Assembly (NCBI GenBank): GCA_947259115.1 | Contig: CAMYKS010000010.1 | Coordinates: 41,236 to 105,235, forward strand | Direction: 5' to 3' | DNA: 64,000 nucleotides | Source: an uncultured Desulfobulbaceae bacterium | GTDB taxonomy: Bacteria > Desulfobacterota > Desulfobulbia > Desulfobulbales > BM004 | Translations under genes and position numbers: made by a program | Shown: piece by piece, positions 7,063-48,780 of the stretch | Position numbering within the stretch: position 1 is the stretch's first letter | Layout of the letters: every line of letters starts with the position of its first letter | The notes under the pieces: generated by a model | What the model was told of the DNA's origin: nothing | Seen by the model: only the letters and a program-made list of their open reading frames with translations | Databases searched by the model: none

Positions 7063-7234
7063 GGTGTTGTTCGCGGATGTTCCTCTTTGAATTCCCTCAT
7101 CACCCCTTGCAGCAATGCTGCTCCACCAACCGGATACTCCGTAGCACAGCACGGAAAAAGTGCACTGTAAAAAATGTTTGCCGGGTCATGCGCTCAGTAT
7201 ATTTACTGCTGCTGCAGAGACCGGTCAGCCTGCA

Positions 7235-7335: not shown

Positions 7336-8409
7336 TTACTTTGTTGTGTGGCACACAAAGCATCCATCCGTACCGCCAGTGCCTGCATCCATGAGGCCAT
7401 AGGACCAGCGCAGCATATCGGCATAGGGCGATCCATGGGCCCGGTGGCACGAGGTACAGACAACGATGTCGTCGCCTGCAGCCACCGCAGAGAAGCTGAG
7501 GGAGCCTGCGCCTGTTGTATTGGTGCCGACCGGGGACTGCACCTCATAGGTGACATAGGCTGCATACTCAGTGCCTGTGGCAGCACTCAACTGGAAATCG
7601 GTGGGATGGCGTCTCCAGGGTGAAGCACTACCGGCACCCAGATCCGTTGCAGGAACGTAGGTGCCGTGGAAATCACCGTGGCATAGGTTGCAATGCGCCT
7701 GGAAGGTATCTGAGGAACCTGTTGCCGGAGTTGCATCACCATAGTAAGCGTTATGGTCGTCGGAAGCATAGGTGAACTCCCAGTCCCCATTCTCACCGCC
7801 CTGGATATAAGAGGCCCCACCACCACTCAGAAAACGGTAACTGGCGCCCCTGCTGGAACCATCGGCCCAGCCGTCGGTATCCGTTGAATAGGTGCTGCCA
7901 GCATTGTAATGATGCGCACCGCCGATATGACAGCTCTCGCATTCAATTAAGTTGCCGCTAAAATTCGTGCCAACTGTGTTTCCCGGGGGTTCGCTCAGGG
8001 TTGCGTCGGGACTGGCTACACCAACAACGTTGTGCCCCTTGTTATCCTCAGCATCACCGGAGGTAGCAACCCAATAGAAATTTCCACCGGCTAGCGTAAT
8101 ACCAGTGTTACCTGTCTCGTCATAGGCTGGGTCTGTAGTGTGCAGAACAATGGGCGCGCTCCACTGGGCACTGACCGCGCCGTCTCCCGCATCACCGGTG
8201 TGGCAGGCCACACAACCGGCTACCCGCAGCAGGTAATTCTGCGCCTGAGTGGTGCCCACTGTCATGTGTGTACCATCCTGGCTGTTGTGCATGGCGTGAC
8301 ATTTGTTGCACAACCCCACCATGACTGCATCCGCCGTGCCCTGGGCCAGCAGAAATACCCCGGTGGCCATAGCACTGCAGAGTAAAGTCCTTGTTAGCAA
8401 TTTTTTCAT
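7336..8409 (-). CDS. omcS: OmcS-family hexaheme c-type cytochrome (candidate nanowire subunit)
   Basis: 357 aa with a Sec signal (..AQGTADA|V) and six CxxCH motifs at C34, C66, C157, C240, C318 and C350. Colinear blocks match my recollection of G. sulfurreducens OmcS: CNKCHAMHNS, GGNFYWV, NKGHNVVG, YRFLSGG, CNLCHGDFH, RRHP, CTSCHRAHGSPYADMLRW and C-terminal CFVCHTTK. A strong SD (AGGAGG) precedes the ATG. Confidence 0.85.
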   Translation of the reverse strand: MKKLLTRTLLCSAMATGVFLLAQGTADAVMVGLCNKCHAMHNSQDGTHMTVGTTQAQNYLLRVAGCVACHTGDAGDGAVSAQWSAPIVLHTTDPAYDETGNTGITLAGGNFYWVATSGDAEDNKGHNVVGVASPDATLSEPPGNTVGTNFSGNLIECESCHIGGAHHYNAGSTYSTDTDGWADGSSRGASYRFLSGGGASYIQGGENGDWEFTYASDDHNAYYGDATPATGSSDTFQAHCNLCHGDFHGTYVPATDLGAGSASPWRRHPTDFQLSAATGTEYAAYVTYEVQSPVGTNTTGAGSLSFSAVAAGDDIVVCTSCHRAHGSPYADMLRWSYGLMDAGTGGTDGCFVCHTTK

Positions 8410-8842: not shown

Positions 8843-10885
8843 TCATGGGACATCCATTACCTGCACCCTGTGGTTGAACATATCGGCCACAATAACGTTG
8901 CCGCGCCGGTCCACTGCAATATGGGACGGAAACTGAAACCAGCCTTCAGACAATCCCTGCCCCCCGAACTCAAGCAGATATCTGCCGTCCTTATAGGTAT
9001 AGGCATTGATGGCATGCCGCATGTAATCTACGACGTAGATGACCTCCCGGTGGACATCAACAGCAATGCTCCTCGGGTTGCTGAGCTTGCCGGTGGACCC
9101 TCCCAGTTCACCAAAGGCAAAGAGGAAATTCTCATCCCTGTCGAGCACGAAAACGCGGCCGGCAATATTGGCGAGGATGTATATCCTGCCCTTGGTATCC
9201 ACCACAACATCCTCCACCTTGAGTGCGCCGGGGTGGCTGGGATCATTGCCCATCTCTTCACTCACGCCGCCTACCTTCAAGGGTACGAGCCAGCGCTTGA
9301 AATTTCCTTCCAGGTCAAGCACCAGCACACCTTTTGCGCCATTGCCGGATATATAGAGCGTATCATTGCCAGGACCGAGGGCCATGTTCTGCGGCACAAA
9401 ATTACCAGCAATACCGGGAATTTCAGCAAAGAAAATATCACGCACTTTAAAAAATGCAGCGTTGAGCACCCTGATCATCGGCGCTATCCTGGTTCCTGCA
9501 TCATCACTGGTTTCTCCCTGGGCCACATAAATATTCCCCTGCTTATCAACTGTCATTCCCATGGGATTACTGATTCCCCTACCCGGGCCAAGTGCGGCCA
9601 CGGGAAAATAGTCCTGCCCGTAAATTGTCACCCTGGTATTTACCTGGCCGCCGGAACTGAGCATATATATCTCATCCATGAACGGGTCATAGTGGACCTC
9701 TCTGGGGAAAGAAATTCTTCGGTCATAGATGTCCCGGAAAAAAACCTTGACCACCCGCACAGGAGACAGGCCGCTTGGCTGACCCCGCTTGGCGAATTTC
9801 TCACCCTGGTCAAAAATATCGGCTCCAGGGGTGTCCGTGCCTTCGTCCGCATCCTTTAGGTCCAGCAGGGTGGCAGTTTCCTGCCGGGGCACAACAGCGG
9901 CAGTGGTAACTGCTGCATCGTCTGCCTTGTTCGGCTGGGCTGCATCTCCCATGGACGCTCCACCGGCCTGGCCCCCTTCTGCAACGGTCTCAAAGGACCC
10001 GTCCAGTTCACCGCTGCTTTCCTCAAGCTGTTCGTCCGCAAGAGCATCCGGGGCTACCAAGGCAACAGGAGCCGGAACCAATTCCGCCGCAGATTGATAC
10101 TGTCTGGATATGCGCTCTGCCTTGATGTATGCCTGCAAAATGTTGGCGCCATCAAGGGGCTCCCCAACCGTTCCAAGGAATGCATCCGCGTCTGCCAGGC
10201 TCTCAAATCTGCCGATTCTGACAGTATGGTACCCCTGTACCTTCTCTATGCGCAGATGATCACGCTGCGTTTCCCGTAATGCTTTTACCAGAAACTGGTA
10301 TTTTTTCTCAGCAGCATCTTCAATGCTGTAGCTGCCCACCTGGATTGTATAGTACTCCTGCTGCTCATTGAAACCGGTTGCAAAATTTGTTGTTGGTGCA
10401 AGGGTTTCAGCCGCTGTTTCTTTTTCAGGAGAAACCGGCAGAATATCATTTACCGATTTTTTCGGGACTGATGCGGTATCCTGGCTAAGAGGCAGAGAAG
10501 CCTCTTCGTGCAAAACAGGTTCATATAATAAGGATATTCGCTCGGGCTTGTTATGGGCTTGCAGAATAAGGGCCCCGGCAAGGGGTTCACCGGCTGCCCC
10601 AACTATCCGATCTGCTTCGCTCCATGAACCAAACCTGCCAAGCCTTACTGTATAGTAGCCACCCACCTTTTCAACACGCAGGTAATCCCGCTGATCAGGC
10701 GCAAGACTCTCAGCCAGGGAATGGAATAACCTTGTTGCAGGCGGTTCCTGGCTGTAGCTTCCGGCTTGGATTGTATGGAACTGCGAAAGATCTGCGGCTC
10801 CGGCAGATGAATGGAACAGGAAAGGTGTCAGAAAAAAGAGGAGGAGGTAAATTGAAAAATGATATGAAATTATTCTAAATTTCAT
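8843..10885 (-). CDS. secreted SPOR-SPOR-NHL-repeat beta-propeller protein
   Basis: The ORF runs to 10936. Met at 10885 has a GAGGTG SD and starts a signal peptide (MKFRIISYHFSIYLLLFFLTPFLFHSSAGA). There are two SPOR-like repeats (FHTIQAGSYS..YYTVRLGRFGSWSEADRIV and YYTIQVGSYS..YHTVRIGRFESLADADAFL), then an Ala/Glu-rich linker, then NHL repeats (..LSNPRSIAVDVHREVIYVVD.., ..PSHIAVDRRGNVIVADMFNHRVQVMD). It contains no CxxCH. Confidence 0.75.
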   Translation of the reverse strand: MKFRIISYHFSIYLLLFFLTPFLFHSSAGAADLSQFHTIQAGSYSQEPPATRLFHSLAESLAPDQRDYLRVEKVGGYYTVRLGRFGSWSEADRIVGAAGEPLAGALILQAHNKPERISLLYEPVLHEEASLPLSQDTASVPKKSVNDILPVSPEKETAAETLAPTTNFATGFNEQQEYYTIQVGSYSIEDAAEKKYQFLVKALRETQRDHLRIEKVQGYHTVRIGRFESLADADAFLGTVGEPLDGANILQAYIKAERISRQYQSAAELVPAPVALVAPDALADEQLEESSGELDGSFETVAEGGQAGGASMGDAAQPNKADDAAVTTAAVVPRQETATLLDLKDADEGTDTPGADIFDQGEKFAKRGQPSGLSPVRVVKVFFRDIYDRRISFPREVHYDPFMDEIYMLSSGGQVNTRVTIYGQDYFPVAALGPGRGISNPMGMTVDKQGNIYVAQGETSDDAGTRIAPMIRVLNAAFFKVRDIFFAEIPGIAGNFVPQNMALGPGNDTLYISGNGAKGVLVLDLEGNFKRWLVPLKVGGVSEEMGNDPSHPGALKVEDVVVDTKGRIYILANIAGRVFVLDRDENFLFAFGELGGSTGKLSNPRSIAVDVHREVIYVVDYMRHAINAYTYKDGRYLLEFGGQGLSEGWFQFPSHIAVDRRGNVIVADMFNHRVQVMDVP

Positions 10886-10986
10886 TGACACCTCAAGCGA
10901 AATAACAGGTGAGCAGCTGTATTGCAAACTGCCCACCTGGGATATATGAAAAGATTAACTCAACATGACATGCTGCGATAAAGCAC

Positions 10987-11080: not shown

Positions 11081-11941
11081 CTATTTCTGAATATCATGGG
11101 CAATGCCATGGCATGCAGCACATTCCGCATATTTCTTATGAATAGAAGGATTATGCGGCTCGCCGTGGCATTCCTGGCAGGCGGGAATCCTGCCGTGTGA
11201 TGCATGACACTCGGCACAGGTCAAAGCTGAGTGCTTTGTCACACGTGCCTGTAATAACTGGTAAGCCTCATCGTGACAACCAGCACAGACTTCCTTGCTC
11301 TGGGTAATGGGATAGGAGATGCGAAGCGGCGTATGTACCGGGTGGCAGGCCAGACAATCAGGCGTTGCAAGTTGTGCCATGGGGCTGTGATTCTCATGGC
11401 ATTCAGCACATTGGGGAATACGGCCGTGTTTTTCCGAATGACAGGAGGAGCACTCCTGCTCTGTATGCATGCTCACCTCTGCCATAAGGCTTGCTGCAAC
11501 CTCGGTATGGCACAGTTTACAGCGCCCTTCAAGAGATCCGGGATCAGGAATGGAAACCAATGGCTTGTGGGGGTTGGCGTGGCATTCCAAGCACTGCATC
11601 ACCGGTTCCGCAGACCCGTGGGGTGCATCATGGCAGCTGGAACATTTGGGCATAATCGCCCCGTAATTATTGCGCAGTGGGTTATAGGCATGAAAGACCT
11701 CGTGGCATTCGGTACAGGCTACTGTCTGGTGCCTGGCGCCATTATCGCGCAGCCAATTGTAGTGTGTCGTATGGCAGCGGGCGCAATCCTCCAATGTCAG
11801 AGGCTGCACCGCTATAGTGTAAATACTGCCCTCAACCGTTTCAGCAGCAGCAGATTGGCAAAAGAAAAATGCTGCAAAAAGAATAAATGCCGGTGTGGTC
11901 ATTTTTACCAAACTACAATTGATTGTTTTTTTTCTTGCCAT
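11081..11941 (-). CDS. dodecaheme c-type cytochrome (GSU1996-like polymer of c7-type triheme modules)
   Basis: 286 aa with a signal peptide and 12 CxxCH motifs (CARCH, CTECH, CSSCH, CLECH, CKLCH, CSSCH, CAECH, CLACH, CAGCH, CAECH, CQECH, CAACH). There is an internal repeat, ..HGRIPxCxECH.. An SD (AGAGGTG) precedes the ATG. Confidence 0.9.
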   Translation of the reverse strand: MARKKTINCSLVKMTTPAFILFAAFFFCQSAAAETVEGSIYTIAVQPLTLEDCARCHTTHYNWLRDNGARHQTVACTECHEVFHAYNPLRNNYGAIMPKCSSCHDAPHGSAEPVMQCLECHANPHKPLVSIPDPGSLEGRCKLCHTEVAASLMAEVSMHTEQECSSCHSEKHGRIPQCAECHENHSPMAQLATPDCLACHPVHTPLRISYPITQSKEVCAGCHDEAYQLLQARVTKHSALTCAECHASHGRIPACQECHGEPHNPSIHKKYAECAACHGIAHDIQK

Positions 11942-12041: not shown

Positions 12042-12839
12042 TTATTTAACCAGGAAATGCGCGTCCAGATGACAGTCTAGACAGTTGGGCATTTTCTGAT
12101 GCATAAATGACGAGTGGGGTTCGCCGTGGCAGGTCTGACACTGGGGCACATTGGGATGCTGCCCCCGGTGGCAGAAGGCACAGGTAAATGTCTGGTGCTT
12201 GGTCACGGTTTTTTCCAGCTGCTCGCCGACTTCCTCATGACATGGCACACAGAAAGCCCTCTGGGTGGTCATCGCATAATTAATTTGCAGCGGATGATGT
12301 GCAGGGTGACAGCCGAGGCAGTCACTGGTCAGTTGGCCTTCCGCGTGGGGCTCATGACAGTTGGAGCAATCGGGGATCTTGCCATGCACCTCGTGGCAGA
12401 AGGTACATGACTGCTCTGCATGGGCACTGGCGAAATTGGCAAAATCCTGCCCCGGGCCTTCATGGCAGGTGAGACACGGCTCTTTAATATCATCGGCAAG
12501 GTTCAGGGCCAGGGGTTCATGGGGATTCGAATGACAGGAGAGGCAGTTTTCCAGTTCAAAATGCGACCTCCCTTCATGGCACATGGAGCATTGCGGAATA
12601 ACTTCTTCCCCCCAGGGCGGATGCTCCTGGTGACAGTCCAGACAAGTAACAGCGGTCTGATGCTTGCCGCCGTTGCTGGCTATTGAGGCCGGCGCATCCT
12701 GGTGACACTTGACGCAGTCCGCTAAATCCAGAGAGGTCAGTTCTGCTTTTGCCTCACTGGGGAAAACAGCCAACATGGCAGCTGCAACGACAACTGCGCA
12801 GAGAAAACCAAATAAAGAATATCCTTTTTTTTCCATCAT
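12042..12839 (-). CDS. dodecaheme c-type cytochrome, tandem paralog
   Basis: 265 aa with a signal peptide (..VFPSEAKA) and 12 CxxCH motifs (CVKCH, CLDCH, CSMCH, CLSCH, CLTCH, CTFCH, CSNCH, CLGCH, CVPCH, CAFCH, CQTCH, CLDCH). Its module spacing matches that of the 11081..11941 product. Confidence 0.9.
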   Translation of the reverse strand: MMEKKGYSLFGFLCAVVVAAAMLAVFPSEAKAELTSLDLADCVKCHQDAPASIASNGGKHQTAVTCLDCHQEHPPWGEEVIPQCSMCHEGRSHFELENCLSCHSNPHEPLALNLADDIKEPCLTCHEGPGQDFANFASAHAEQSCTFCHEVHGKIPDCSNCHEPHAEGQLTSDCLGCHPAHHPLQINYAMTTQRAFCVPCHEEVGEQLEKTVTKHQTFTCAFCHRGQHPNVPQCQTCHGEPHSSFMHQKMPNCLDCHLDAHFLVK

Positions 12840-30261: not shown

Positions 30262-31896
30262 TCACGGTTCCGGGTCCAGTTTATCAATGAGCATGATCTG
30301 GTATTTCGCATCCACTGATTCAGGATCTACTGCTAAAATCTGTTTATACGTACTCCTGGCTCCCTCATATTCCTTCTGCTGCACTTGCAGTTTTCCCAGC
30401 CTGTCCAGCGCCCTCAAATAATGCGGATTAATTTTCAGGGCCTGCTCATATGAATGAAGGGCCTTCTGGGCTTCATCCTTCATTTCATGGGCTATACCCT
30501 CATCGGTATAGGAATGGCTGAAATCAAAAGGCTCTATAACCTTACTATTGGCAAGGCCAAGAACACATCCCACTATGATGAGGCTCACTGCAAGTTTGCG
30601 CCACCGGGCCGTGCGAAACTGATCCTGCAGCATGGAAAGCCCATAGCCTGCCGACAGGCAGAAGAGCGGCAAAGCAACCATCCTGTAACGGGAAAAAACA
30701 TAAAAAATGATGACAGAAACGATATAGGCAATCTGGATAAAAAAGAGAAACACCGGTGCACTTCGTCTCTCTTGCAGCATGCCAAGAAGTCCCAGCAGAA
30801 AAAAGGGGGCCAGCAGGCCGAAACTGATTGGTAACACCTGCAGGACCTTTGAATAGCGCTTATGGAAGTAAAGGTTGTGATTATCGGGAATTTCATAATC
30901 GTTCAAAAAGAGCAGCAGTTTCTTAGCGCTAAGCTTAAGGTCTTCCATTGGATTATTTTGTATAAAATCGATACTCTGCAGTAGCCAGTAACGGGACACT
31001 TGCGAAGGGCTCAGCGTTCCACCGCTGCGCTTCTCCGCCTCATTTTTAAAATCTTCCTGCTCATGCATGGGGTCAGGGCGCACAAAGTCCAGTTTAACAT
31101 AGGTGCCGTTGGCATCAGGATTATGGCCGACATAAAAATTCTGACCAGCCTGGGCGGTGGTCAGAATTAATTCCTTGCCCAGCATATAATTATGCGCAAC
31201 AGCCGGCCCCAGAGCCGCTAGAACCCCGATAAAAAAAAGGGCGGCCATACCTGAACGAATTTTTATCTGCGCATTTTTCTGCACCAGGATCGTGATGAAA
31301 ACCACGGGCAGGAGGAGAAGAAAATTTGCCCTGGTGAGACAGGCAAGACCGAGAAAGAACCCGGAAAAAAACTGGCTCATGCTGATTTCTTTTAAATCCT
31401 TCTCAAGAAACAGATATATTGCCATGGTAAATAGAAAGGCCGACAGGGTCACCTTGAGCAGCAACCCGTCAAAATATATTGCCGGTCCATACAGGGCATA
31501 TAGTAATCCCGCAAAAATGGCGGCAGTCCTGTTGAAAATTCTCGTACCCAGCAGAACAAGCAGCAGGGAAGTACAGGCCCCGAGAAAGGCCTGGGCTAAA
31601 TATACCCAGAACAACTCCCGCCCCATGATCTTGTAAAAAAGTGCCAGAAAGTAAGGGTAAAGAGGGTCCTGGTAGAAAATGTCTTTGCCACGCCAGCCAT
31701 GCTCGACAATCTGGCGGGCCCAGCGGTCATAGGCCCCGAGATCTCCCGGCAGCACATCAAAAAAAGGACTGTTCTTATAAATTGATGCTATATGGATAAG
31801 GCGGAGCCCAAGAGCCAGGATAAAAATTGCAAGCGCCCAAAAAAGTATTTTTTTTTCTGTGACTTTCTGCATGGAAGCTGCTTTCATGGCTAACAT
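30262..31896 (-). CDS. GT39/ArnT-like membrane glycosyltransferase with C-terminal TPR
   Basis: 544 aa with a multi-pass membrane N-terminus (FYQDPLYPYFLALFY) and C-terminal TPR repeats (ALHSYEQALKINPHYLRAL..). Confidence 0.6.
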   Translation of the reverse strand: MLAMKAASMQKVTEKKILFWALAIFILALGLRLIHIASIYKNSPFFDVLPGDLGAYDRWARQIVEHGWRGKDIFYQDPLYPYFLALFYKIMGRELFWVYLAQAFLGACTSLLLVLLGTRIFNRTAAIFAGLLYALYGPAIYFDGLLLKVTLSAFLFTMAIYLFLEKDLKEISMSQFFSGFFLGLACLTRANFLLLLPVVFITILVQKNAQIKIRSGMAALFFIGVLAALGPAVAHNYMLGKELILTTAQAGQNFYVGHNPDANGTYVKLDFVRPDPMHEQEDFKNEAEKRSGGTLSPSQVSRYWLLQSIDFIQNNPMEDLKLSAKKLLLFLNDYEIPDNHNLYFHKRYSKVLQVLPISFGLLAPFFLLGLLGMLQERRSAPVFLFFIQIAYIVSVIIFYVFSRYRMVALPLFCLSAGYGLSMLQDQFRTARWRKLAVSLIIVGCVLGLANSKVIEPFDFSHSYTDEGIAHEMKDEAQKALHSYEQALKINPHYLRALDRLGKLQVQQKEYEGARSTYKQILAVDPESVDAKYQIMLIDKLDPEP

Positions 31897-34176: not shown

Positions 34177-35295
34177 TTACTGCCTGGAATCACTAAAAAA
34201 AAGTGCCTCGATAAATTCCTTGGGATCAAAATCACGCAGATCATCCAGCTTCTCGCCAATACCTATAAACCTGATGGGGATATTAAAATCATGGGAAATA
34301 TTTACCACAATGCCTCCCTTGGCCGTACCATCAAGCTTTGTCAAGGTCAGGCCGGTGAGGCCGACAGCCTCATTAAAGAGCTTGGCCTGGGAAATACTGT
34401 TCTGGCCGGTGGTGGCATCCAGGATGAGCATTATTTCATGGGGTGCACCCTCTATTTTTTTGTTAATCACCCGCTTGATCTTTTTCAGTTCTTCCATCAG
34501 GTTCACTTTTGTATGGAGCCTACCGGCCGTATCAACAATTATGACATCAAAATCCTTGGTTGCAGCATAATCCAGGGCATCATAGATAACCGAGGAAGGA
34601 TCAGCGCCCTGCTGTTTTGCAACCACATCCGCCCCTACCCGTTCCGCCCATACCTTTAACTGGTCAATGGCGGCTGCCCGAAAAGTATCGGCTGCAACGA
34701 GCAGAACACGCTGGCCGGCACGGGCAAACTTGTTGGCAATCTTACCTATGGTCGTCGTTTTACCAACACCGTTGACACCGATCACCATGATTACAAAGGG
34801 GCCAGTTGCAGGAAGTTTCATCTCTGCATCGCCATAACCCTCAAAGAAGGTAAGAATTCTCTCTTTCAGGGCAAGCTTTAACGCCTGGGGATCTTCGAGT
34901 TCTTTGCGTGTCACCCTGCCGCGAATTTCATCAAGAAGGTCCAGAGTTGTATTAACGCCGAGGTCGGCTGTAATTAATATCTCCTCGAGTTCATCAAGAA
35001 GTTCAGCATCAATTTCTTTCCTGCCAAGGAACAGTTCATCAACCCTGCTCACCAGGGAAGTCCGTGTCTTGGCCAGCTTCTCCTGCAGGCGCCTGAACAG
35101 CCCTTTCCGACTCTCGTGCTTCTGGGCAAGCTCTTCTGAAGCAGCACCCATTAAGTCTCTGGTTTCCCTGGCACCATGAGAAGCAATTTCCGCAGCACCA
35201 CCTTCTCCAGCCTCTTTTTCCTGCCGCGATATCTCTGCAGCATCGGGCACTGCATCTTCATTGATTTTTTTCTTCTTTTTAAACCATCCTAACAT
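34177..35295 (-). CDS. ftsY: signal recognition particle receptor FtsY
   Basis: 372 aa with an acidic N-terminus and SRP GTPase motifs (GVNGVGKTTTIGK, DTAGRLH, TKLDGTAKGG). Confidence 0.95.
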   Translation of the reverse strand: MLGWFKKKKKINEDAVPDAAEISRQEKEAGEGGAAEIASHGARETRDLMGAASEELAQKHESRKGLFRRLQEKLAKTRTSLVSRVDELFLGRKEIDAELLDELEEILITADLGVNTTLDLLDEIRGRVTRKELEDPQALKLALKERILTFFEGYGDAEMKLPATGPFVIMVIGVNGVGKTTTIGKIANKFARAGQRVLLVAADTFRAAAIDQLKVWAERVGADVVAKQQGADPSSVIYDALDYAATKDFDVIIVDTAGRLHTKVNLMEELKKIKRVINKKIEGAPHEIMLILDATTGQNSISQAKLFNEAVGLTGLTLTKLDGTAKGGIVVNISHDFNIPIRFIGIGEKLDDLRDFDPKEFIEALFFSDSRQ

Positions 35296-35410: not shown

Positions 35411-37147
35411 TCACCGATGCAGGGACTCTGCCAGCCAGGCAAGTCCTGCCAGCAGGAAAAAAACCGATTCCAGGCAGAATTCAAGTTTAGGCCCCTGAGT
35501 TATTTTGCCTTTAGTGTACAGCCGGATTAACACGATAATATACAGTATGCCCGGCAGCAGCCAGAATCCCGCCTCCGACATGAGACCTAAAAACGGCATG
35601 AGCAGCAGCAGAACAATCAGCGCTCCCAAAATAATATGCAGAAAAAAGAGCGTCTTCTGCTCACCGATACAAACGGGCAGCGTTTCCTTGCCGACAATTC
35701 TGTCTCCCTGCACCTCGAAAACATCGAAAAGCGCATTTCTTACAAAAACAAGGAGCAGAATAAAAAACAGAACCACCAAAGTCATCATATCCGGGGTATG
35801 GGAGTCGCTCCAGGCTGGGATAAGGGCAGTAATAAAAGCCCAGGCCACAGCCACCAGGAAGGTCTTGGAGCCGGGAATCTCCTTCAGGCCCCGCACCCTG
35901 ATATTCGGAATCAGGGATTTGGGAATGACCTGCACGCTGTAAAGAATACCGAAAATACTCATGCCCGTCAGAAGCAGAAAAGGCTTTAATCCGTGTTCAA
36001 ACACCAGTGTCAGGGCTAAGGCCAGGGACAGGGCCGAAATGATCAGGAGCGGCCAGCGGTATTTCTCATAAAACAGTGCCCGCAACGGATCATTGAATTT
36101 TTGCTGTTTTCTGTCGGTAAAACGATTGAGATTGTGCATGGCAAACAGATACAAAAAACTGATCAGAAAATGGCTTACCCCTGGGCCATTGTTCTGCAGA
36201 ATCTCTGCCGTATAGGTGAGCGCTCCACCTGCAAGACTCACGTAGATATTGGTCGCCAGAAGAAGCCAGAGCAGTTTGCTGCCGGACTTCTTAAGCGTGC
36301 CCTCATCCTTGCCGGGCATAGCCTCCAGTATCGCGACAACCCTGCTTATCATCCAGGTAGGAGTTGAAGCTCCGGCAGTAACACCTACAAATTCATGTTT
36401 TGCCAATGCATCAAGGTCCAGTTCACCTTCGGTTTCAACCTGATAAACAGGACAGCCCTTACCCTCAGCTATCTCAGCCAGCCTTTTCGTATTGGCACTA
36501 TTCTTGCCCCCCACCACAACCATGGCATCTACATCATTACAAAGGCTGCGCACCTCTTCCTGGCGTTTATGGGTGGCATCGCAAATGGTATTAAAAACCT
36601 TGCCGCCTGGAAAACGCTCCAGAATCGAACTGCTCAATTCTTCAAAGCTGGTTGCATCCTGGGTTGTCTGGCTGACGATTATGTAGGGCACATTAAGCTG
36701 CAAGTTCTGTACATCTTCCCGGTTGCTGACAACCTTACCCAAACTCCCGGTAAAACCCATCAGACCTTCAACTTCCGCATGATTACGGTCACCAATAATA
36801 ACGGTTGCATACCCATGCTTGAGATACTTTTTGATAACAACCTGGACCTTGACGACATGGGGACAGGTTGCATCCTTAACGGTGGCACCTGTCATCTGGA
36901 GCTTTTCCTTATGAACAGGGGGAACACCATGGGCTCGTATAATAACCGTGCCGGATTCCTTTTCAGGGATATCCCGGAGTATCTTGACGCCCCGCTCCTC
37001 TAAAAGATTGAGAACCTGGGGATTATGGATCAAAGGGCCATAGGTTGATACTCCCGTACCCTCTTTCTGGATAACCTCCAGGGTAGTTTCCACCGCCCTC
37101 CTGACCCCCATGCAGAAACCGGCACTTTTTGCTAAAATAACTTTCAT
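35411..37147 (-). CDS. ispH: fusion: 4-hydroxy-3-methylbut-2-enyl diphosphate reductase (IspH) + UbiA-like polytopic prenyltransferase domain
   Basis: 578 aa. Residues 1 to ~285 form a complete IspH (MKVILAKSAGFCMGV.., DATCPHV, NTICDATHKRQ, GVTAGASTP). Residues from ~290 to the end form ~8 TM helices with Asp-rich UbiA-type motifs (NRFTDRKQQKFND and FDVFEVQGDRIVGKETLPV). Confidence 0.7.
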   Translation of the reverse strand: MKVILAKSAGFCMGVRRAVETTLEVIQKEGTGVSTYGPLIHNPQVLNLLEERGVKILRDIPEKESGTVIIRAHGVPPVHKEKLQMTGATVKDATCPHVVKVQVVIKKYLKHGYATVIIGDRNHAEVEGLMGFTGSLGKVVSNREDVQNLQLNVPYIIVSQTTQDATSFEELSSSILERFPGGKVFNTICDATHKRQEEVRSLCNDVDAMVVVGGKNSANTKRLAEIAEGKGCPVYQVETEGELDLDALAKHEFVGVTAGASTPTWMISRVVAILEAMPGKDEGTLKKSGSKLLWLLLATNIYVSLAGGALTYTAEILQNNGPGVSHFLISFLYLFAMHNLNRFTDRKQQKFNDPLRALFYEKYRWPLLIISALSLALALTLVFEHGLKPFLLLTGMSIFGILYSVQVIPKSLIPNIRVRGLKEIPGSKTFLVAVAWAFITALIPAWSDSHTPDMMTLVVLFFILLLVFVRNALFDVFEVQGDRIVGKETLPVCIGEQKTLFFLHIILGALIVLLLLMPFLGLMSEAGFWLLPGILYIIVLIRLYTKGKITQGPKLEFCLESVFFLLAGLAWLAESLHR

Positions 37148-37420: not shown

Positions 37421-37675
37421 ATGATTGACAAAAAAGAACTTTGTGACAAAATCCAGGAAATATACCCGGAGATCGGGGAATGTGGCATTGACCTTGCGGT
37501 TGATTATGACAAGCGTCAGAATGCCTGGGTTGTGGACCTGAAAAAAAACAACCATGAATTAAAGCACTTCCTCGAAAAACCAGATGCCGACGCCTGTATG
37601 GATGGCAAACAATGTGTTGGCCTGGGACTTGAAATTGCCCAGTTGGCGAAAAACATCAAGGGTGAGCAGTTTTAA
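37421..37675 (+). CDS. small conserved-looking hypothetical protein
   Basis: 84 aa with a good SD (GGGAGG) 8 nt upstream. It shows no low complexity, and I recognise no family for it. Confidence 0.5.
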   Translation: MIDKKELCDKIQEIYPEIGECGIDLAVDYDKRQNAWVVDLKKNNHELKHFLEKPDADACMDGKQCVGLGLEIAQLAKNIKGEQF

Positions 37676-37720: not shown

Positions 37721-38653
37721 ATGCCTGAACTCCGTCCATTAACTCTGGCTGACAGAAGCCTGGTTTCAGGATTTTTGAGCACTTATGCACCTGTAATCTC
37801 AGAGCACACCTTTACAAATCTTTTTATCTGGCAGCCTTCCAGGCCGATCCTCTTTACTGAGGTGGCCGACTCCCTTGTTTTTTTAGTTAAAGCAGCCCGG
37901 GAGAAAGATAAATACATCCTCTTCGGTCCCCCAGTCGGTACAATAACCATTCCGGATGTGTTCGCGGTTTTGGGAGACAATGTTATAGGGGCTGTCCGCG
38001 TTCCTGATGCGGATGTTGCAGGTCTTCCTGCTCCAGCCTTTACAGTAACCCCGGACCGTGATAATGCCGATTATGTCTACCGGGTAAGGGACCTGGCTGA
38101 ACTTGCCGGACGGCGCTATACAAAAAAACGCAACCATATCAACAAGTGCCTCAGCAGTCATGTTTGTGAGTATGTTCCCATTTCCGCCGAACTCATTGCA
38201 GCTTGTGAAACCATGCAGGAAAACTGGTGTAAAAGCAGGGATTGCGGCCGTAATCCCGGTTTATGCAATGAAGCCAATGCCATTGCAGAAACCTTTGCCC
38301 ATTATAATGAATTCGGTCTTCTTGGCGGAGCAATCAGGGTCGACGGCACCATCCAGGCCTATGCCATCGCAGAAACATTGCGTCCCGACACAGCTGTCTG
38401 GCATTTTGAAAAGGCCATGGCCCATATACAGGGACTCGGCCAGCTTATAAATCAATGGTTCTCTAAATATGGGCTTTCAGATTTTACCTATGTCAACCGT
38501 GAACAGGATCTCGGCATCCCGGGCATGCGTCAGGCGAAAGAGAGCTACTACCCGCAGCATATGGTAGATAAAAACTGTATTTCCCTGTCTAGTAACAAAA
38601 CCATCACTGCCAAGAGTATCAAGGCTGAGGGCTGCGCTGCACACGAACATTGA
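37721..38653 (+). CDS. DUF2156 (MprF C-terminal-like, GNAT-fold) protein
   Basis: 310 aa. The N-terminal pattern LRPLTLADRSLVSGFLSTYAPVISEHTFTNLFIWQ is typical of DUF2156. Confidence 0.6.
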   Translation: MPELRPLTLADRSLVSGFLSTYAPVISEHTFTNLFIWQPSRPILFTEVADSLVFLVKAAREKDKYILFGPPVGTITIPDVFAVLGDNVIGAVRVPDADVAGLPAPAFTVTPDRDNADYVYRVRDLAELAGRRYTKKRNHINKCLSSHVCEYVPISAELIAACETMQENWCKSRDCGRNPGLCNEANAIAETFAHYNEFGLLGGAIRVDGTIQAYAIAETLRPDTAVWHFEKAMAHIQGLGQLINQWFSKYGLSDFTYVNREQDLGIPGMRQAKESYYPQHMVDKNCISLSSNKTITAKSIKAEGCAAHEH

Positions 38654-43634: not shown

Positions 43635-44528
43635 ATGTCAGATGCATGCAAAACATGTCCAAGCAAAAGCGGGGAACAGAAAGGAACCTGCTCCACCGTG
43701 AAGACTGCCAAAGCGGTGCAGGACATTGCCATAACTTCAGCCTTAACTAAAATTAAATATAAAATTCTTGTCATGAGCGGCAAGGGCGGGGTGGGCAAGA
43801 GTACAGTGGCAACAAACCTGGCCCTGGGGCTGGCTAACAGGGGATTTCAAGTCGGCTTGATGGATGTTGACCTGCACGGCCCTGATATCTGCCGTATGCT
43901 CAATCTCACCGATAGGCTGCACAGAACCAAAGAGGAAAAAACCTCCCTGGTGCCGCCCATGCATTACAATGACAAGCTAAAAATCATGTCCCTTGAATAC
44001 ATGATGGACAACCGCGATGAGGCCATCATCTGGCGGGGACCGCTCAAGATCCAGGCGATCAGGCAGTTTATCGCTGAAATTGACTGGGGGCAGCTGGACT
44101 ACCTGGTTATTGATGCTCCTCCCGGCACAGGGGACGAACCGCTTTCCGTGGCCCAGACCATTAAGGATGTCCAGGCCCTGGTTGTTACAACACCCCAGGA
44201 GGTTGCCCTGGCTGATGTCCGCAAGTCCATCAATTTCTGCAAACAGGTGAATATCAAGATTCTCGGACTCGTTGAAAACATGAGCGGCTTTATCTGTCCT
44301 CACTGCGACAAGCAGGTTGATATCTTTGGTACCGGCGGCGGCAAGAAGACGGCTCTTGAGTTCAACCTGCCCTTCCTGGGCAATATACCCATGGACCCGA
44401 AGGTGGTTGTCGGCGGAGACAGCGGCAGGCCGTATCTTTCCTCCGGGGCCGGTTCTCTAGCAACCAAGGCCTTTGACGGGGTTATAGATAAAGTTGTTAA
44501 AGAACTGCCCGCGAAAAAAGAATCGTAA
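43635..44528 (+). CDS. Mrp/NBP35 (ApbC) Fe-S cluster carrier ATPase
   Basis: 297 aa with a deviant Walker A (MSGKGGVGKST), a CPHC motif and an N-terminal CxxC. Confidence 0.85.
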   Translation: MSDACKTCPSKSGEQKGTCSTVKTAKAVQDIAITSALTKIKYKILVMSGKGGVGKSTVATNLALGLANRGFQVGLMDVDLHGPDICRMLNLTDRLHRTKEEKTSLVPPMHYNDKLKIMSLEYMMDNRDEAIIWRGPLKIQAIRQFIAEIDWGQLDYLVIDAPPGTGDEPLSVAQTIKDVQALVVTTPQEVALADVRKSINFCKQVNIKILGLVENMSGFICPHCDKQVDIFGTGGGKKTALEFNLPFLGNIPMDPKVVVGGDSGRPYLSSGAGSLATKAFDGVIDKVVKELPAKKES

Positions 44529-45191: not shown

Positions 45192-47114
45192 GTGCGTGAA
45201 ATCATCCTGGGCACAGCCGGGCATGTGGATCATGGTAAGACCAGCCTTATCCGGGCCTTGACCGGAATCGACACAGACCGCCTCAAGGAGGAAAAGGAAC
45301 GCGGCATCACCATTGAACTTGGCTTTGCCTATCTTGATCTGCCCTGCGGCCACCGCCTGGGTATTGTTGATGTTCCGGGCCATGAGAAGTTTGTCAAAAA
45401 CATGGTGGCGGGAGCATCGGGTTTGGACCTGGTCGCCTTCATCGTTGCTGCCGACGAAGGCATCATGCCCCAGACCAGGGAACATTTCGAGATCTGCCGC
45501 TTGCTTGGCATACAGCGGGGCCTTATTATAGTCACCAAAAAAGACATGGTGGAAACGGACTGGCTTGAGCTGGTGACCGATGACATCAGGACGTTTTTTG
45601 CAGATTCATTCCTGCAGGATGCCCCTCTGCTTACGGTATCCTCCACCACAGGCGAGGGAATTGAAGAGGTCAGGAATACCCTTGATACACTTGTGGCTGC
45701 ATCTGATTTTTCTGAAGCCCATGGCCCTTTCCGCCTGCCGGTGGACAGGGTTTTTTCCATGAAGGGTTTTGGTACTGTGATAACCGGTACAGCCATATCA
45801 GGCCGTATAAAAACCGGGGATGAGCTCATGTTCTACCCCAGCCGCAAAACCGGCAAAATCAGGGGTATCCAGGTGCACTCCAAAGATACGCAAGAGGTTG
45901 AAGCAGGCCACAGAACAGCCGTTAATATCCAGGGCTTGGAAAAAGATGCCATCAACAGGGGAGAAATGGCTGCTTCGGTCAATTGTCTGCAGCCGTCATA
46001 CCTGCTTGATGCACACTTTTTCTACCTGGAATCCGCTAAAAAACCCTATAAAAACAGGGCCAGGGTAAGGGTTCACATCGGCACGGCGGAGATAATGGGA
46101 CGTATCGTCCTGCTCCATGATGAAGAACTGGAACCCGGAGCTGAAACCGATGTGCAGATCCTGCTTGAAGAGCAGGCCGGCTGCTGGCCCGGTGACAAAT
46201 ACGTGGTGCGCAGCTATTCCCCTATCCATACCATAGGCGGCGGCACGGTCTTAAACGGCTCCCCCAGAAAAAGAAAACGGTTCCGGGAAGAAAATAAAGA
46301 CATATTCAGGATCTACAAGGAAGACAATCAACAGAATCTTGCCCTGCTCCATATCAGGGAAAGCGGCTACAACGGCCTCACCTTTGACAGGCTTGCCGTC
46401 AAGATGGGTGTTTTCGGCAACCGTCTCAAAAAGATTCTGCAGCAACCGCTTTCATCCAGAAAAATCATCCTCATTGAGCAGGAAAAACAACGCATGGTAT
46501 TCACTGAGGTCTATGAAAAACTGGGAGCAAAGCTCCGAACGGTTCTTACTACCTATCACCAGGAAAACCCTCTCAAGTCAGGACTGCCCAAAGAGGATCT
46601 CCGCTCGAGGCTCTACAGGGGCCTCGACCAGCGCCTTTTTCAGTTTTTGTTAAACGACCTGCAAAAGAAGGGAGAAATCGGCAAGGACCAGGCATTGATT
46701 TGTCTGTCTGGACACACGGTATCCCTGAAGGAAGATGAAAAAAACCTGCGCCGGGAACTTGAAGCCTTTTACAGACAGGCGGACCTGACGCCGCCGACCA
46801 TGAAAGAAATCATGGTAAAATTCAGTAAATATCCCCAGGATCTTATAAAAGAAGTTATGGTAATTATGGTTAGGGAGGATGCCCTGACCAAAGTCACTGA
46901 AGATCTTTATTTTCATAAGCCGTCCATGGAAAACCTCAAAAAAAAGCTGGTTGCTCTCCTTATTAAAGAGAATGAGATTGATACACCTGCTTTTAAGGAT
47001 CTGACAGGCCTTTCAAGAAAGTTCAGCATCCCGCTTCTTGAATACTTCGACAAAACAAAGGTTACCATCCGGGTTGGAGATAAGCGCATTCTCAGGGAGA
47101 AACACAATCAGTAA
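45192..47114 (+). CDS. selB: selenocysteine-specific elongation factor SelB
   Basis: 640 aa. It has a GTG start, [43 protein letters not shown], and C-terminal winged-helix repeats. Confidence 0.9.
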
Positions 47115-48780
47115 GCTTGTTGGCAATACCAATGGCCTGAAAACGGCCCAGCTCAAACGCCTTGAACGTTTAGGCAAGAAACGCATAGCGCCCGACCTCA
47201 TAGTCAGCCATGAGATGGCAAGGACCATGGCCGAAATTTCAAGCGATACAGGCCGCCAGGTTGGTGTCCTTATTGACCGGTCGGGCCAGGTCGACATGGT
47301 CATTGTCGGTGATGCCAAACAGATTGTCATCCCTGCCCTCTCAAGCATCAGGTCTTCAGGCGGCCGCCTTAAGGGATTACGCTGTATTCACACCCATTTA
47401 GCCGGTGAAAACCTGACCGAAGATGACCTGGCCGACCTCCTATTCTTGCGCCTCGACCTCATGGGAATAATCAAGATCAGGCCAGACGGTGAGCCTGAAA
47501 AACTCTACGCTGCACACCTTGTCCCATCTCCCCAGGCAGAAAAGAACTGGACCTTTCTTGACCCCATCATTCCCGGCCGGCAACCATTTGACTGTGACGA
47601 ACTCATCGCTGCCCTGGAGGGAGAATTTACCAAACTGCAGCCCATCCGGGCTGTTGATAAGGGAAAAGACCGGGCCATACTCATTAGTGTTATTACCCCT
47701 GCCCGCTTTCAAGGTCGCGGTACTGCCCAGGAATCCATGGACGAACTCGTCGAACTGGCACGCTCGGACGATGTCGTAGTGCTCGACAAAGTTATCCAGC
47801 AACGCAAAAAAATTAATCCCAAATTTATCCTCGGCAAGGGTAAATTGGGAGAGATCATGCTTGCCGCCCTGCGCCAAAACGCCAACCTTCTGCTCTTCAA
47901 CCAGGAACTGAATCCATCCCAGATCCGCTCAATTACCGATCACACGGAGTTGCGGGTTATTGACCGTACCCAGCTCATCCTGGATATTTTTGCCCGCCGG
48001 GCCTTAAGCCGTGAGGGCAGGCTGCAGATTGAAATGGCCCAGCTCAAATATATGCTGCCACGCCTGACAATGAGAGATGACGCCCTATCCCGCCTGACCG
48101 GGGGAATCGGCGGCCGCGGCCCGGGTGAGACCCGGCTGGAAATAGACCGCAGGCGCATCAATGACCGGCTGGCGCTGCTGGCCAAGAAATTAAAGAAAGT
48201 AAGCCGGGAACGTTATCAAAGACGTTCCCGACGCCGCAAAAAAGGCATACCGGTGATATCACTTGTGGGCTATACCAATGCAGGCAAATCAACTCTGCTG
48301 AATACACTGACGGAAAGCAAAATAAGCGCTGAGAACAAACTCTTTGCCACCCTGGACCCGACAAGCCGGCGTCTCCGCTTTCCAAAGGATATAGAGGTGA
48401 TAATCACCGACACCGTGGGCTTTATCCGCAACCTGCCCGATGAATTGCTCCAGGCCTTTAAGGCCACCTTTGAAGAACTTTATGAAGCGGACATGCTGGT
48501 GCACGTAATTGATGTAAGCAACCCGCGGTTTGCCGACCAGGTTGCTGTTGTGGACAAACAGTTGCGGGACCTGGAGCTTGATAAAATTCCCTGTCTCAAG
48601 GTATTGAATAAGGCCGATCTGGTGGCGCAGGAATTTGTGGAAATACAATGCAGAGAATACGGGGCTGTGGCCTTAAGCGCCCTTGATGCTGATACTTTCG
48701 GGCCCTTCTTTGATGGAGCCCAAAAAATTATCGGCAGCCTTGAAAACCTGGAGAATTTCAAGAATCACCTTTCCGTGTAA
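47038..48780 (+). CDS. hflX: GTPase HflX (start uncertain)
   Basis: It has an HflX N-domain and G-domain (GYTNAGKSTLLN, DTVGFI, NKAD). The track ATG at 47038 overlaps selB by 77 nt. The next ATG is at 47215 (MARTMAEI), so the N-terminal boundary is unresolved. Confidence 0.85.
   Translation: MNTSTKQRLPSGLEISAFSGRNTISKLVGNTNGLKTAQLKRLERLGKKRIAPDLIVSHEMARTMAEISSDTGRQVGVLIDRSGQVDMVIVGDAKQIVIPALSSIRSSGGRLKGLRCIHTHLAGENLTEDDLADLLFLRLDLMGIIKIRPDGEPEKLYAAHLVPSPQAEKNWTFLDPIIPGRQPFDCDELIAALEGEFTKLQPIRAVDKGKDRAILISVITPARFQGRGTAQESMDELVELARSDDVVVLDKVIQQRKKINPKFILGKGKLGEIMLAALRQNANLLLFNQELNPSQIRSITDHTELRVIDRTQLILDIFARRALSREGRLQIEMAQLKYMLPRLTMRDDALSRLTGGIGGRGPGETRLEIDRRRINDRLALLAKKLKKVSRERYQRRSRRRKKGIPVISLVGYTNAGKSTLLNTLTESKISAENKLFATLDPTSRRLRFPKDIEVIITDTVGFIRNLPDELLQAFKATFEELYEADMLVHVIDVSNPRFADQVAVVDKQLRDLELDKIPCLKVLNKADLVAQEFVEIQCREYGAVALSALDADTFGPFFDGAQKIIGSLENLENFKNHLSV

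Follow-up and report, generated by a model that had tools for sequence, protein, structure and literature searches.

On the minus strand of the window, i.e. the whole 64-kb stretch of DNA that has been analysed, a single gene (35411..37147) joins an IspH sequence to a membrane domain of the UbiA superfamily. The question that this locus raises is twofold: whether the joining of the two halves is real and new, and what a UbiA-like half does in a protein that begins as the last enzyme of the MEP pathway. The first part is answered by comparison: the fusion has been known since 2015, it is standard in sulfate-reducing Desulfobacterota, and the window copy is a typical member. The question that remains is biochemical, i.e. 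the role of the UbiA-like half, and as a discovery the locus matters little; the answer would explain why a whole bacterial lineage keeps its last MEP enzyme membrane-bound, and it might reveal a prenylated metabolite of sulfate reducers.

The fused gene

The gene is complete: the ORF listing and the translation give an ATG start, 578 codons with no internal stop, and a TGA stop at 35411-35413. The preliminary description of this DNA, in which a single uninterrupted ORF of 578 aa had been reported with its strand unstated, is correct on this point; the strings that were quoted in it are all found in the translation, i.e. GFCMGV (C12), DATCPHV (C95), NTICDAT (C189), NRFTDRKQQKFND (residues 341-353) and FDVFEVQGDRIVGKETLPV (residues 474-492), and the domain junction lies where it had been placed, near position 36290. 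A Pfam search assigns LYTB to residues 3-274 (E=1.5e-89) and UbiA to residues 324-546 (49.4 bits, gathering cutoff 34.2), both far beyond chance. The proposed joining of IspH to a UbiA-superfamily membrane domain is fully supported by profiles, structure and comparative evidence alike.

Between the two halves lies a short stretch, residues 278-300 (PGKDEGTLKKSGSKLLWLLLATN; 36248..36316, minus strand), which forms a basic linker and a pre-membrane helix; it has four lysine or arginine residues, a number that fits a cytoplasmic location. In the AlphaFold model of the whole protein (pLDDT 93.7, pTM 0.89), a helix runs from residue 284 on with a pLDDT of ~89-95, and the linker has no disordered segment.

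Both halves are located in one ORF at all 80 of the 80 related loci that we have fetched from species-representative genomes; the same two Pfam domains are shared by more than 120 homologues, which are 76-88% identical to the window protein, and when clusters are formed at 50% identity, 84 of the best 150 are in-frame fusions, most of the others being visibly truncated fusions. An artefact, in which an error of sequencing or assembly would have joined two neighbouring genes, is an explanation of negligible probability, for which we have found no supporting evidence and which these comparative data refute: the single-ORF layout shared by 80 independent genome loci excludes a frameshift or an assembly artefact, the clusters beyond the 84 fused ones are mostly truncated fusions, a confident, unbroken helix spans the junction in the AlphaFold model, and the fusion is already in print (Rao et al. 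2015, PMC4746011).

The published family and its spread

The family has been described by Rao, O'Dowd, Li, Wang and Oldfield (2015, Chem Sci 6:6813; PMC4746011) as “IspH-UbiA Rosetta stone proteins” in sulfate reducers: 47 sequences were counted, the UbiA part was assigned to CDD PT_UbiA_5, “two DXXXD repeats” were described, Desulfobacula toluolica and Desulfobacterium autotrophicum were among the members named, and the expression of an IspH-UbiA protein was attempted and failed. The novelty that was implied in the preliminary description, where IspH fusions were mentioned only with ribosomal protein S1, is therefore mistaken. The published hybrids show no difference in kind from the window protein: the layout is identical (N-terminal IspH and a UbiA-like C-terminus of ~9 TM helices, in ~575-580 aa), the hosts belong to the same group (Desulfobacterales, Desulfobulbales and other Desulfobacterota), and both show the same conservation of the Asp-rich loops and of the three cysteines, but the first of the “two DXXXD repeats” is in fact degenerate. 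The identical architecture and the host order would place the window protein in this family, for which we have found no functional follow-up in the searchable literature.

Members of the family now occur in at least 583 species genomes, and at 50% identity they form 1,383 protein clusters, numbers which, together with the fused layout at 80 of 80 loci, argue that the fusion is old and maintained by selection. The window protein belongs to an uncultured Desulfobulbales-like lineage; its closest database relatives are 84-88% identical to it, and the named relatives are all MAGs of Desulfobulbales, Desulfobacterales, Desulfosarcina, Desulfocapsa or Desulfurivibrionaceae. In the annotation of hundreds of genomes, the fusion is labelled IspH.

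The IspH-RPS1 fusions of Clostridia and Fusobacteria (NF000907/PRK00087), which have been characterised in the same paper as the IspH-UbiA hybrids (PMC4746011), have the N-terminal IspH in common with the window protein, and both kinds of fusion occur in anaerobes; their C-terminal partner, however, consists of 4-6 soluble S1 RNA-binding repeats, while that of the window protein is a membrane domain. Against the IspH-RPS1 model, the window protein scores 313 bits over model positions 1-281, and its whole-protein score is far under the cutoff of 624.

The IspH half

The IspH (HMBPP reductase) domain, predicted to be cytoplasmic, comprises residues 1-277 (36317..37147, minus strand). It matches PF02401 over model positions 1-266 of 267 (300.3 bits vs a cutoff of 24.5, E=1.5e-89) and TIGR00216 at 278 bits (cutoff 187.85); the Foldseek search aligns it with 3DNF_B (TM 0.88, rmsd 2.6 Å, 40% identity) and 3KE8 (TM 0.82), and the predicted structure has the trefoil three-domain α/β fold of IspH.

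The three ligands of the [4Fe-4S] cluster are encoded on the minus strand at 37112..37114 (Cys12), 36863..36865 (Cys95) and 36581..36583 (Cys189); the first is kept in 63 of the 63 members in which the N-terminus is present, and the second and the third are kept in 71 of 71. Across 71 diverse fusions, H41, H73, C95, H123, E125, C189, S217, N219 and S261 are invariant; the same three histidines, E125, S217, N219 and S261, together with T161, are kept in 68-71 of the 71 sequences. We take the latter set to correspond to the substrate-binding and catalytic residues H41, H74, H124, E126, T167, S225, N227 and S269 of the E. coli enzyme, and the three cysteines to correspond to its cluster ligands C12, C96 and C197, as they also do in the Foldseek superposition on 3KE8. 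The complete HMBPP reductase with three cluster cysteines that had been read from the sequence is thus found, with all the catalytic residues present too. The invariance of these residues among 71 fusions whose IspH halves share a mean pairwise identity of ~46% (vs ~31% for the membrane halves) argues for a working IspH half.

The fold and topology of the membrane half

The C-terminal half (residues ~301-578; 35414..36247, minus strand) is a UbiA-superfamily membrane domain of nine TM helices with N-in topology, as is seen from PF01040, the family profile, the Foldseek search and the distribution of the positively charged residues. PF01040 is matched at 49.4 bits by the full protein and at 52 bits by the C-terminal half alone, against a gathering cutoff of 34.2; in the AlphaFold model, nine long helices are located between residues 301 and 577, so the membrane domain of the preliminary description stands, while its count of ~8 helices is replaced by nine.

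The Foldseek search retrieves ApUbiA (4OD4, TM 0.73) and AfUbiA (4TQ3, TM 0.68) for this half. The solved UbiA structures, i.e. ApUbiA (4OD4/4OD5), AfUbiA (4TQ3-6), M. jannaschii DGGGPS (6M31) and UBIAD1 (8DJK), have the 9-helix fold in common with the window protein (TM 0.55-0.73), as well as the second Asp-rich motif in loop HL6-7; the window protein differs from them in its low identity (12-18%), in its incomplete first motif and in the enzyme that is fused to its N-terminus. Searched against the PDB sequences, the family profile reaches 6M31, the M. jannaschii DGGGP synthase (E=1.4e-6), and also AfUbiA; a single-sequence phmmer search with the C-terminal domain gives nothing at E≤10.

No NCBIfam equivalog model for a specific UbiA subfamily comes near its cutoff among MenA, DGGGPS, BchG, HPT and PRK13591: the scores are 48.9 for NF010117 (PRK13591; cutoff 238), 29.6 for DGGGPS NF009521 (cutoff 296), 22.9 for BchG TIGR01476 (cutoff 212), 15.9 for MenA NF004751 (cutoff 264) and 10.6 for HPT (cutoff 226), and the UbiA(4HB) and haem O synthase models are not listed for the window protein at E≤1. 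The nearest sequence models are generic prenyltransferase and DGGGPS-like ones.

The positive-inside count is 17 lysine and arginine residues in the cytoplasmic loops versus none in the outer loops, which places the UbiA-like loops and IspH together on one side of the membrane; both the IspH active site and the UbiA-like active-site loops are accordingly predicted to face the cytoplasm.

Asp-rich motifs and conserved loops

The conservation of the membrane half has been compared in 82 members of the family. The second Asp-rich motif (residues 470-491, R-N-A-L-F-D-V-F-E-V-Q-G-D-R-I-V-G-K-E-T-L-P; 35675..35740, minus strand), located in the cytoplasmic loop HL6-7, has the form D475-x-x-E478-x-x-x-D482: D482 and G486 are each kept in 81 of the 82 members and R470 in 79, position 475 is acidic in 71 and position 478 in 68, and the whole triad is acidic in 58. 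In the family profile, the region of this motif aligns with both Asp motifs of the M. jannaschii DGGGP synthase.

The first motif (residues 341-353, N-R-F-T-D-R-K-Q-Q-K-F-N-D; 36089..36127, minus strand), located in loop HL2-3, is atypical. In the window protein, N341 and D345 are present, glutamine takes the place of the third Asp (349), and residue 353 is acidic; among the 82 members, N341 occurs in 73, position 345 is acidic in 61 and non-acidic in 21, position 349 is variable, with the third Asp missing in 64, 62 have D or E at 353, and in five members positions 345, 349 and 353 are all non-acidic. The acid at 353 might stand in for the missing third Asp. The first Asp-rich motif is essential in the characterised UbiA enzymes, according to the structural work on ApUbiA and AfUbiA.

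A further conserved loop, L-K-E-I-P-G-S427-K428 (HL4-5; 35864..35887, minus strand), is also cytoplasmic: S427 is kept in 80 of the 82 members and K428 in 75, with arginine in the remaining seven, and K428 is likely to be a diphosphate-binding lysine. The near-invariant residues of the membrane half (N341, Y403, S427, K428, R470, D482, G486 and E488) are polar residues or glycine at cytoplasmic loops and helix ends; in a half that evolves faster than the IspH half, such residues fit a ligand-binding site better than a plain anchor.

As judged from the alignment, the fused family has an eroded first motif and a nearly invariant second one, a combination that makes canonical prenyltransferase activity plausible, not assured. 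Of the two UbiA-type motifs in the preliminary description, the second is upheld, with D482 kept by 81 of the 82 members, and the first is degenerate, lacking the third Asp at 349; with it, the assumption of an active prenyltransferase has become less secure. Any functional proposal has to allow for the decay of this motif, which is one of two catalytic Asp motifs.

Free-standing relatives

Short bacterial matches to the C-terminal domain have been considered as free-standing versions, and most of them have been rejected: they begin with the C-terminal sequence of IspH, i.e. they are truncated fusions. The nearest free-standing relatives are archaeal (Methanomicrobia) UbiA-family proteins, uncharacterised, with NF010117/PRK13591 “prenyltransferase” as their nearest NCBIfam model; their hosts are Methanohalophilus, Methanosarcinaceae, Methanoperedens, Methanomicrobiales and Methanocellales. 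These archaeal sisters match the membrane half over its full length (hhalign probability 100%, E=7e-53, 282 columns), and they share with the fused family the loop YRRLKEIPxxK and the motif FDxRDIxGDxxxGxxTIP. Unlike the window protein, they lack an IspH domain; their first motif (N-x-x-x-D-E-x-E-D; D72, E75, D76) is of the canonical type and does not vary among them, whereas that of the fused family is eroded.

The Methanomicrobia that host these sisters use the mevalonate pathway. In the neighbourhoods of the archaeal genes, we have found only a FilR1-type regulator, which is uninformative. A role of the archaeal sisters in methanophenazine prenylation has been considered and finds no support: Methanomicrobiales and Methanocellales have the family too, and only generic “UbiA” genes are listed in the literature.

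Gene context

The ±10 kb flanks of the 80 related loci have been clustered, and the conserved neighbours have been annotated. In the window, the downstream neighbour is ftsY (34177..35295, minus strand; SRP54 domains), which follows the fusion gene in 32 loci and is conserved in the clade of the window. The 115-bp spacer between the two genes has no terminator-like site, and the two genes are possibly co-transcribed; the counts from a promoter and terminator scan are at chance level. The conserved neighbours are all housekeeping genes. Those of this first clade are ftsY, dnaJ/terB and an aminotransferase, and those of a second clade are parA, parB, NYN_YacP, DUF3842, Smr and a convergent plsY; plsY, a lipid enzyme, has been rejected as a functional clue, being convergent and limited to one clade.

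Among the conserved neighbours of the 80 loci, there is no quinone, haem or lipid gene that would indicate an acceptor, and no isoprenoid, quinone or haem-modification gene occurs among the 30 further ORFs that have been annotated in the window. No other ispH is located within ±10 kb of the related loci or in the window, which, together with the housekeeping context, fits a core gene; the fusion would be the main IspH of the cell. The window also contains multihaem cytochromes and SelB, which are compatible with a sulfate-reducing Desulfobacterota host, not diagnostic of one.

The role of the UbiA-like half

The question of function has been narrowed by these comparisons: both active sites are predicted to be cytoplasmic, no operon partner hints at the acceptor, and the sister family is archaeal and uncharacterised. 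With modest confidence, we lean towards a protein in which a working IspH is held at the membrane and the C-terminal half still transfers prenyl groups. Residues 1-277 would act in the cytoplasm as a [4Fe-4S] HMBPP reductase and produce IPP and DMAPP; the basic linker would tie this domain to the 9-helix UbiA domain, whose three active-site loops are predicted to be cytoplasmic, and would thereby keep IspH at the membrane's inner face; the C-terminal half would most likely still bind a (prenyl) diphosphate and transfer the prenyl group to a membrane acceptor, with D475, E478, D482, R470, K428, Y403 and N341 as the candidate residues for the transfer. Both halves would thus be active, the supply of C5 precursors would be placed beside a membrane prenylation step, and this co-localisation may be the selective advantage of the fusion.

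Several observations weigh against prenyl transfer at the membrane: the first motif is eroded while the archaeal sister family keeps its D, E and D invariant, no UbiA subfamily model comes near its cutoff, and the conserved neighbours give no hint of an acceptor. Moreover, the known UbiA enzymes mostly take long-chain prenyl diphosphates from separate synthases, so the benefit of directly channelling the C5 products of IspH is not obvious. The idea of tethering and supply has already been proposed by Rao et al. (2015, PMC4746011), who have also raised a role in sensing or localisation.

There is a less probable reading, to which we still give real weight: the C-terminal half may have lost catalysis and may serve as an anchor or pseudo-enzyme, which tethers IspH to the membrane or senses a lipid or diphosphate ligand; such a tether could bring IspH near membrane-associated electron donors or isoprenoid-lipid enzymes. 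The erosion of the first motif, compared with the invariant D-E-x-E-D of the archaeal sisters, is consistent with it, as are the faster evolution of the C-terminal half (31% vs 46% mean pairwise identity), the lack of an assigned subfamily and of partner genes in our searches, and the sensor or localisation role raised in PMC4746011. However, the full 9-helix UbiA fold, kept in at least 583 species, is more than a simple anchor needs, and D482, G486, R470, K428, S427, Y403 and E488 are near-invariant in the active-site loops; 58 of the 82 members have an all-acidic triad in the second motif, and 81 keep D482.

Prenyl transfer by the canonical route is also set aside in a proposal on the origin of the membrane half, which we consider rather unlikely: the C-terminal half would derive from the UbiA family of methanogen/ANME archaea, or would recently have shared ancestry with it, would have lost the first motif after the fusion, and would carry out a non-canonical reaction of an undescribed kind, which could be a single-motif C5 transfer, with DMAPP or HMBPP from IspH, or a ligand-gated control of IspH. 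If this were true, it would mean a lineage-specific prenylated lipid or cofactor in Desulfobacterota, or would add a new point of control to the MEP pathway.

Considered apart from any archaeal origin, non-canonical chemistry by an active membrane half with the UbiA fold seems to us improbable: for example, the donor could be a non-prenyl diphosphate, or DMAPP or HMBPP straight from IspH, or the reaction could be of a single-motif cyclase type. Rv3806c-type phosphoribosyltransferases are an example of the UbiA fold with a non-prenyl diphosphate donor. One Asp motif is kept and the other is lost, as such chemistry might allow; a fusion to an enzyme that releases a C5 diphosphate would be most sensible if the donor were a C5 diphosphate, and the Foldseek search also retrieves 4TQ4 (AfUbiA with DMAPP) and the membrane phosphoribosyltransferase 8J8J. 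The similarity to 8J8J is weak, however (E=0.019, TM 0.56), and the nearest sequence matches are to generic prenyltransferase and DGGGPS-like models.

The fusion gene and its two domains

The gene that encodes the IspH–UbiA fusion is located at 35411..37147 (−): the ORF listing and the translation give an ATG-initiated frame of 578 codons with zero internal stops, which bears out the uninterrupted frame described before, and the peptide strings quoted in the preliminary description are all found at the places it had assigned to them, their window coordinates having been checked by back-translation. On the minus strand, the codons of C12, C95 and C189 are located at 37112-37114, 36863-36865 and 36581-36583, respectively, while motif 1 (residues 341-353, loop HL2-3) is encoded at 36089-36127 and motif 2 (residues 470-491, loop HL6-7) at 35675-35740.

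The interpretation of the protein as an IspH joined to a UbiA-superfamily domain has proved correct in comparisons with Pfam, NCBIfam and the PDB. In Pfam, LYTB (PF02401) covers residues 3-274 (E=1.5e-89) and UbiA (PF01040) covers residues 324-546, the latter scoring above its gathering score of 34.2 bits both in the whole protein (49.4 bits) and in the C-half alone (52 bits). The IspH equivalog TIGR00216 of NCBIfam is passed (278 bits vs a cutoff of 187.85), and none of the models for specific UbiA subfamilies scores close to its cutoff: the highest score is that of the generic “prenyltransferase” NF010117/PRK13591 (48.9 vs 238), and the DGGGPS, BchG/ChlG, MenA and HPT models all fall far under theirs. 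The AlphaFold2 model of the fusion protein, built from a 77-sequence alignment (A3), is of high confidence (mean pLDDT 93.7, pTM 0.89, no segment below 50); according to Foldseek, its N-half matches IspH from A. aeolicus (3DNF, TM 0.88, 40% identity) and E. coli (3KE8, TM 0.82), while its C-half matches the UbiA fold of ApUbiA (4OD4, TM 0.73) and AfUbiA (4TQ3, 0.68), followed by DGGGP synthase (6M31) and UBIAD1 (8DJK). Nine long helices are located within residues 301-577 of the model, rather than the approximately eight transmembrane helices estimated earlier.

Distribution and published precedent

A large-database search has retrieved over 120 clusters that are 76-88% identical to the fusion protein, all of them 563-578 aa long, with both Pfam domains, originating from Desulfobulbales or Desulfobacterales MAGs and annotated simply as IspH. 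With the C-domain alone, an exhaustive HMMER search (E≤1e-3) has yielded 1,383 clusters at 50% identity; a near-complete IspH domain is present in 84 of the best 150 of these, and most of the others among the best 150 are truncated fusions, since their N-termini start with IspH C-terminal sequence. When GTDB species were scanned, each represented by a single genome, at least 583 genomes proved to carry a relative. An assembly artefact is excluded: the UbiA-like domain and IspH share one ORF in 80 of the 80 fetched loci, and no separate ispH is located within ±10 kb at any of them. One fused ispH-ubiA (L014, JAIWHJ010000085.1, 4745-6490; C-domain 54% identical) comes from a MAG labelled “Promethearchaeota archaeon”; because the contig has only 6.8 kb and 0.47x coverage, mis-binning of a contig from Desulfobulbales, rather than an archaeal MEP-pathway gene, is very probable.

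The fusion is already known, because the window protein is a typical member of a family described in 2015, when 47 IspH-UbiA hybrids, primarily from Desulfobacterales, were reported to carry a UbiA-like domain (CDD PT_UbiA_5, function unknown) joined to the IspH C-terminus (Rao et al. 2015, PMC4746011). The earlier statement that the known IspH fusions are only with ribosomal protein S1 is therefore incomplete, and the accompanying idea of membrane tethering or product channelling repeats a speculation from the same study, namely that IspH is brought to the membrane by the UbiA domain, which in turn gains from locally high IPP and DMAPP (PMC4746011). Besides the hybrid, the organisms that bear it possess a distinct MenA/UbiA; a Phyre2 model of the hybrid puts IspH on the cytoplasmic side, and expression of the full-length hybrid from three species failed (PMC4746011). 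Our literature searches for functional follow-up to Rao et al. (2015) gave citations only. To this we add, modestly, an eroded motif 1 and an archaeal sister family, both introduced below, and future biochemistry should allow for both.

Conservation, topology and the role of the membrane half

The mean pairwise identity of the IspH half is 46% among 71 diverse fusions, with residues C95, C189, H41, H73, H123, E125, S217, N219 and S261 invariant and C12 kept in every fusion whose N-terminus is present; at the level of sequence, this pattern is to be expected from an HMBPP reductase that works. The mean identity of the membrane half is only 31%, and its near-invariant residues (N341, G400, Y403, S427, K428, W436, R470, D482, G486, E488 and G495) sit in cytoplasmic loops and at helix ends. 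The positive-inside rule is cleanly obeyed, with 17 K+R in the predicted cytoplasmic loops vs 0 in the outer loops; therefore, IspH, the N-terminus of the membrane domain and loops HL2-3, HL4-5 and HL6-7 are all predicted on the cytoplasmic side.

Motif 2 is strongly kept among the 82 members compared (consensus D-I-x-D-I-Q-G-D-R-I-V-G-[KR]-E-T-[IL]-P), D482 being present in 81 and the triad being fully acidic in 58. Motif 1 is degenerate: N341 occurs in 73/82 and an acid at position 345 in only 61/82, position 349 (the canonical third Asp) is variable, and in 5/82 none of the positions 345, 349 and 353 is acidic; the window protein has the majority pattern (N341, D345, D353). With a profile made from a handful of genuinely free-standing relatives (A4), some 80 proteins were found that are 295-310 aa long and have UbiA as their sole domain; they bear no more specific name than “UbiA family prenyltransferase” and come almost all from Methanohalophilus, Methanosarcinaceae, Methanoperedens, Methanomicrobiales, Methanocellales and Methanoculleus. 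In a profile-profile comparison, the fused C-domain family (A2) matches this archaeal family (A5) over 282 columns (probability 100%, E=7e-53). Since the archaeal sister keeps a canonical and invariant motif 1 (N-R-K-T-D72-E-x-E75-D76), the erosion is specific to the IspH-fused lineage.

We lean towards a putative bifunctional enzyme anchored in the membrane: a working, cytoplasmic IspH would be held there by a UbiA-fold domain, which would still bind its diphosphate substrate via motif 2 together with conserved basic residues and would prenylate an acceptor, the co-localised supply and use being the presumed selective advantage. The main alternative, that the membrane half is a non-catalytic anchor or a ligand sensor, is supported by the decay of motif 1, but the residues of the active-site loops are strictly conserved across hundreds of species, and we regard it as less likely. 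Non-canonical chemistry, in which the diphosphate donor would be C5 or non-prenyl or a single motif would suffice, appears improbable.

No function has been assigned to the archaeal sister proteins in the searched literature, and no isoprenoid partner gene is located beside their genes; in two genera, Methanohalophilus and Methanoculleus, a FilR1-type regulator (HVO_A0261_N + FilR1_middle) precedes the sister UbiA gene, a conserved pairing seen at the archaeal loci L081 (4563-5378) and L084 (4994-5854).

Genomic context

The context says that the fusion gene is a core housekeeping gene, because its neighbours are housekeeping genes and neither an isoprenoid, quinone or haem-modifying enzyme nor a second ispH is encoded in the 64-kb window; it gives no clue to the acceptor substrate. 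Downstream, after 115 bp, the gene is followed by ftsY, a DnaJ/TerB protein and an aminotransferase, an order shared by some 30 Desulfobulbales-like loci. On the upstream side, two genes diverge from the fusion gene: an ORF of 84 aa that lacks a Pfam match (37421-37675, +) and, after it, a free-standing LPG_synthase_C (DUF2156) gene (37721-38653, +), which corresponds to the C-terminal domain of lysyl-phosphatidylglycerol synthase and lacks the membrane flippase part; this DUF2156 gene is common to about 16 related loci (cluster 27). In Desulfobacterales (loci L034-L080), the fusion gene is located directly downstream (0.3-3 kb) of the chromosome-partition locus parA-parB-NYN_YacP-DUF3842 and faces a convergent plsY, with strikingly conserved synteny (25-36 loci).

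Downstream of the fusion gene, at a distance of 3.5 kb, is a membrane glycosyltransferase gene (PMT_2 + TPR; 30262-31896, −); the sugar donors of this family are polyprenyl-phosphate-linked, and no other enzyme that depends on isoprenoid lipids was seen nearby. The glycosyltransferase gene does not recur as a conserved neighbour. An Mrp/NUBPL-type Fe-S cluster carrier ATPase (43635-44528, +) is encoded 6.5 kb upstream, in the neighbourhood of the Fe-S enzyme IspH; single-linkage clustering has put it together with the ParA proteins from the other clade, and the count for “cluster 3” consequently mixes two different P-loop ATPases.

Other genes of the window

Two large ORFs of 572 aa (2538-4256, −) and 717 aa (4999-7152, −), neither with a Pfam match at E≤1e-6, adjoin clustered genes for multihaem cytochromes (7336-8409, 11081-11941 and 12042-12839, all −) and an NHL/SPOR protein (8843-10936, −); the region may be an electron-transfer locus, extracellular or periplasmic, of an uncharacterised kind. 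The presence of the selenocysteine elongation factor SelB (45192-47114, +) implies that the organism makes selenoproteins. The HflX-type GTPase ORF that overlaps it is listed from its first TTG (47038-48780, +); its true start is probably later, because of the 77-bp overlap with SelB and the approximately 230 residues that precede its first Pfam domain.
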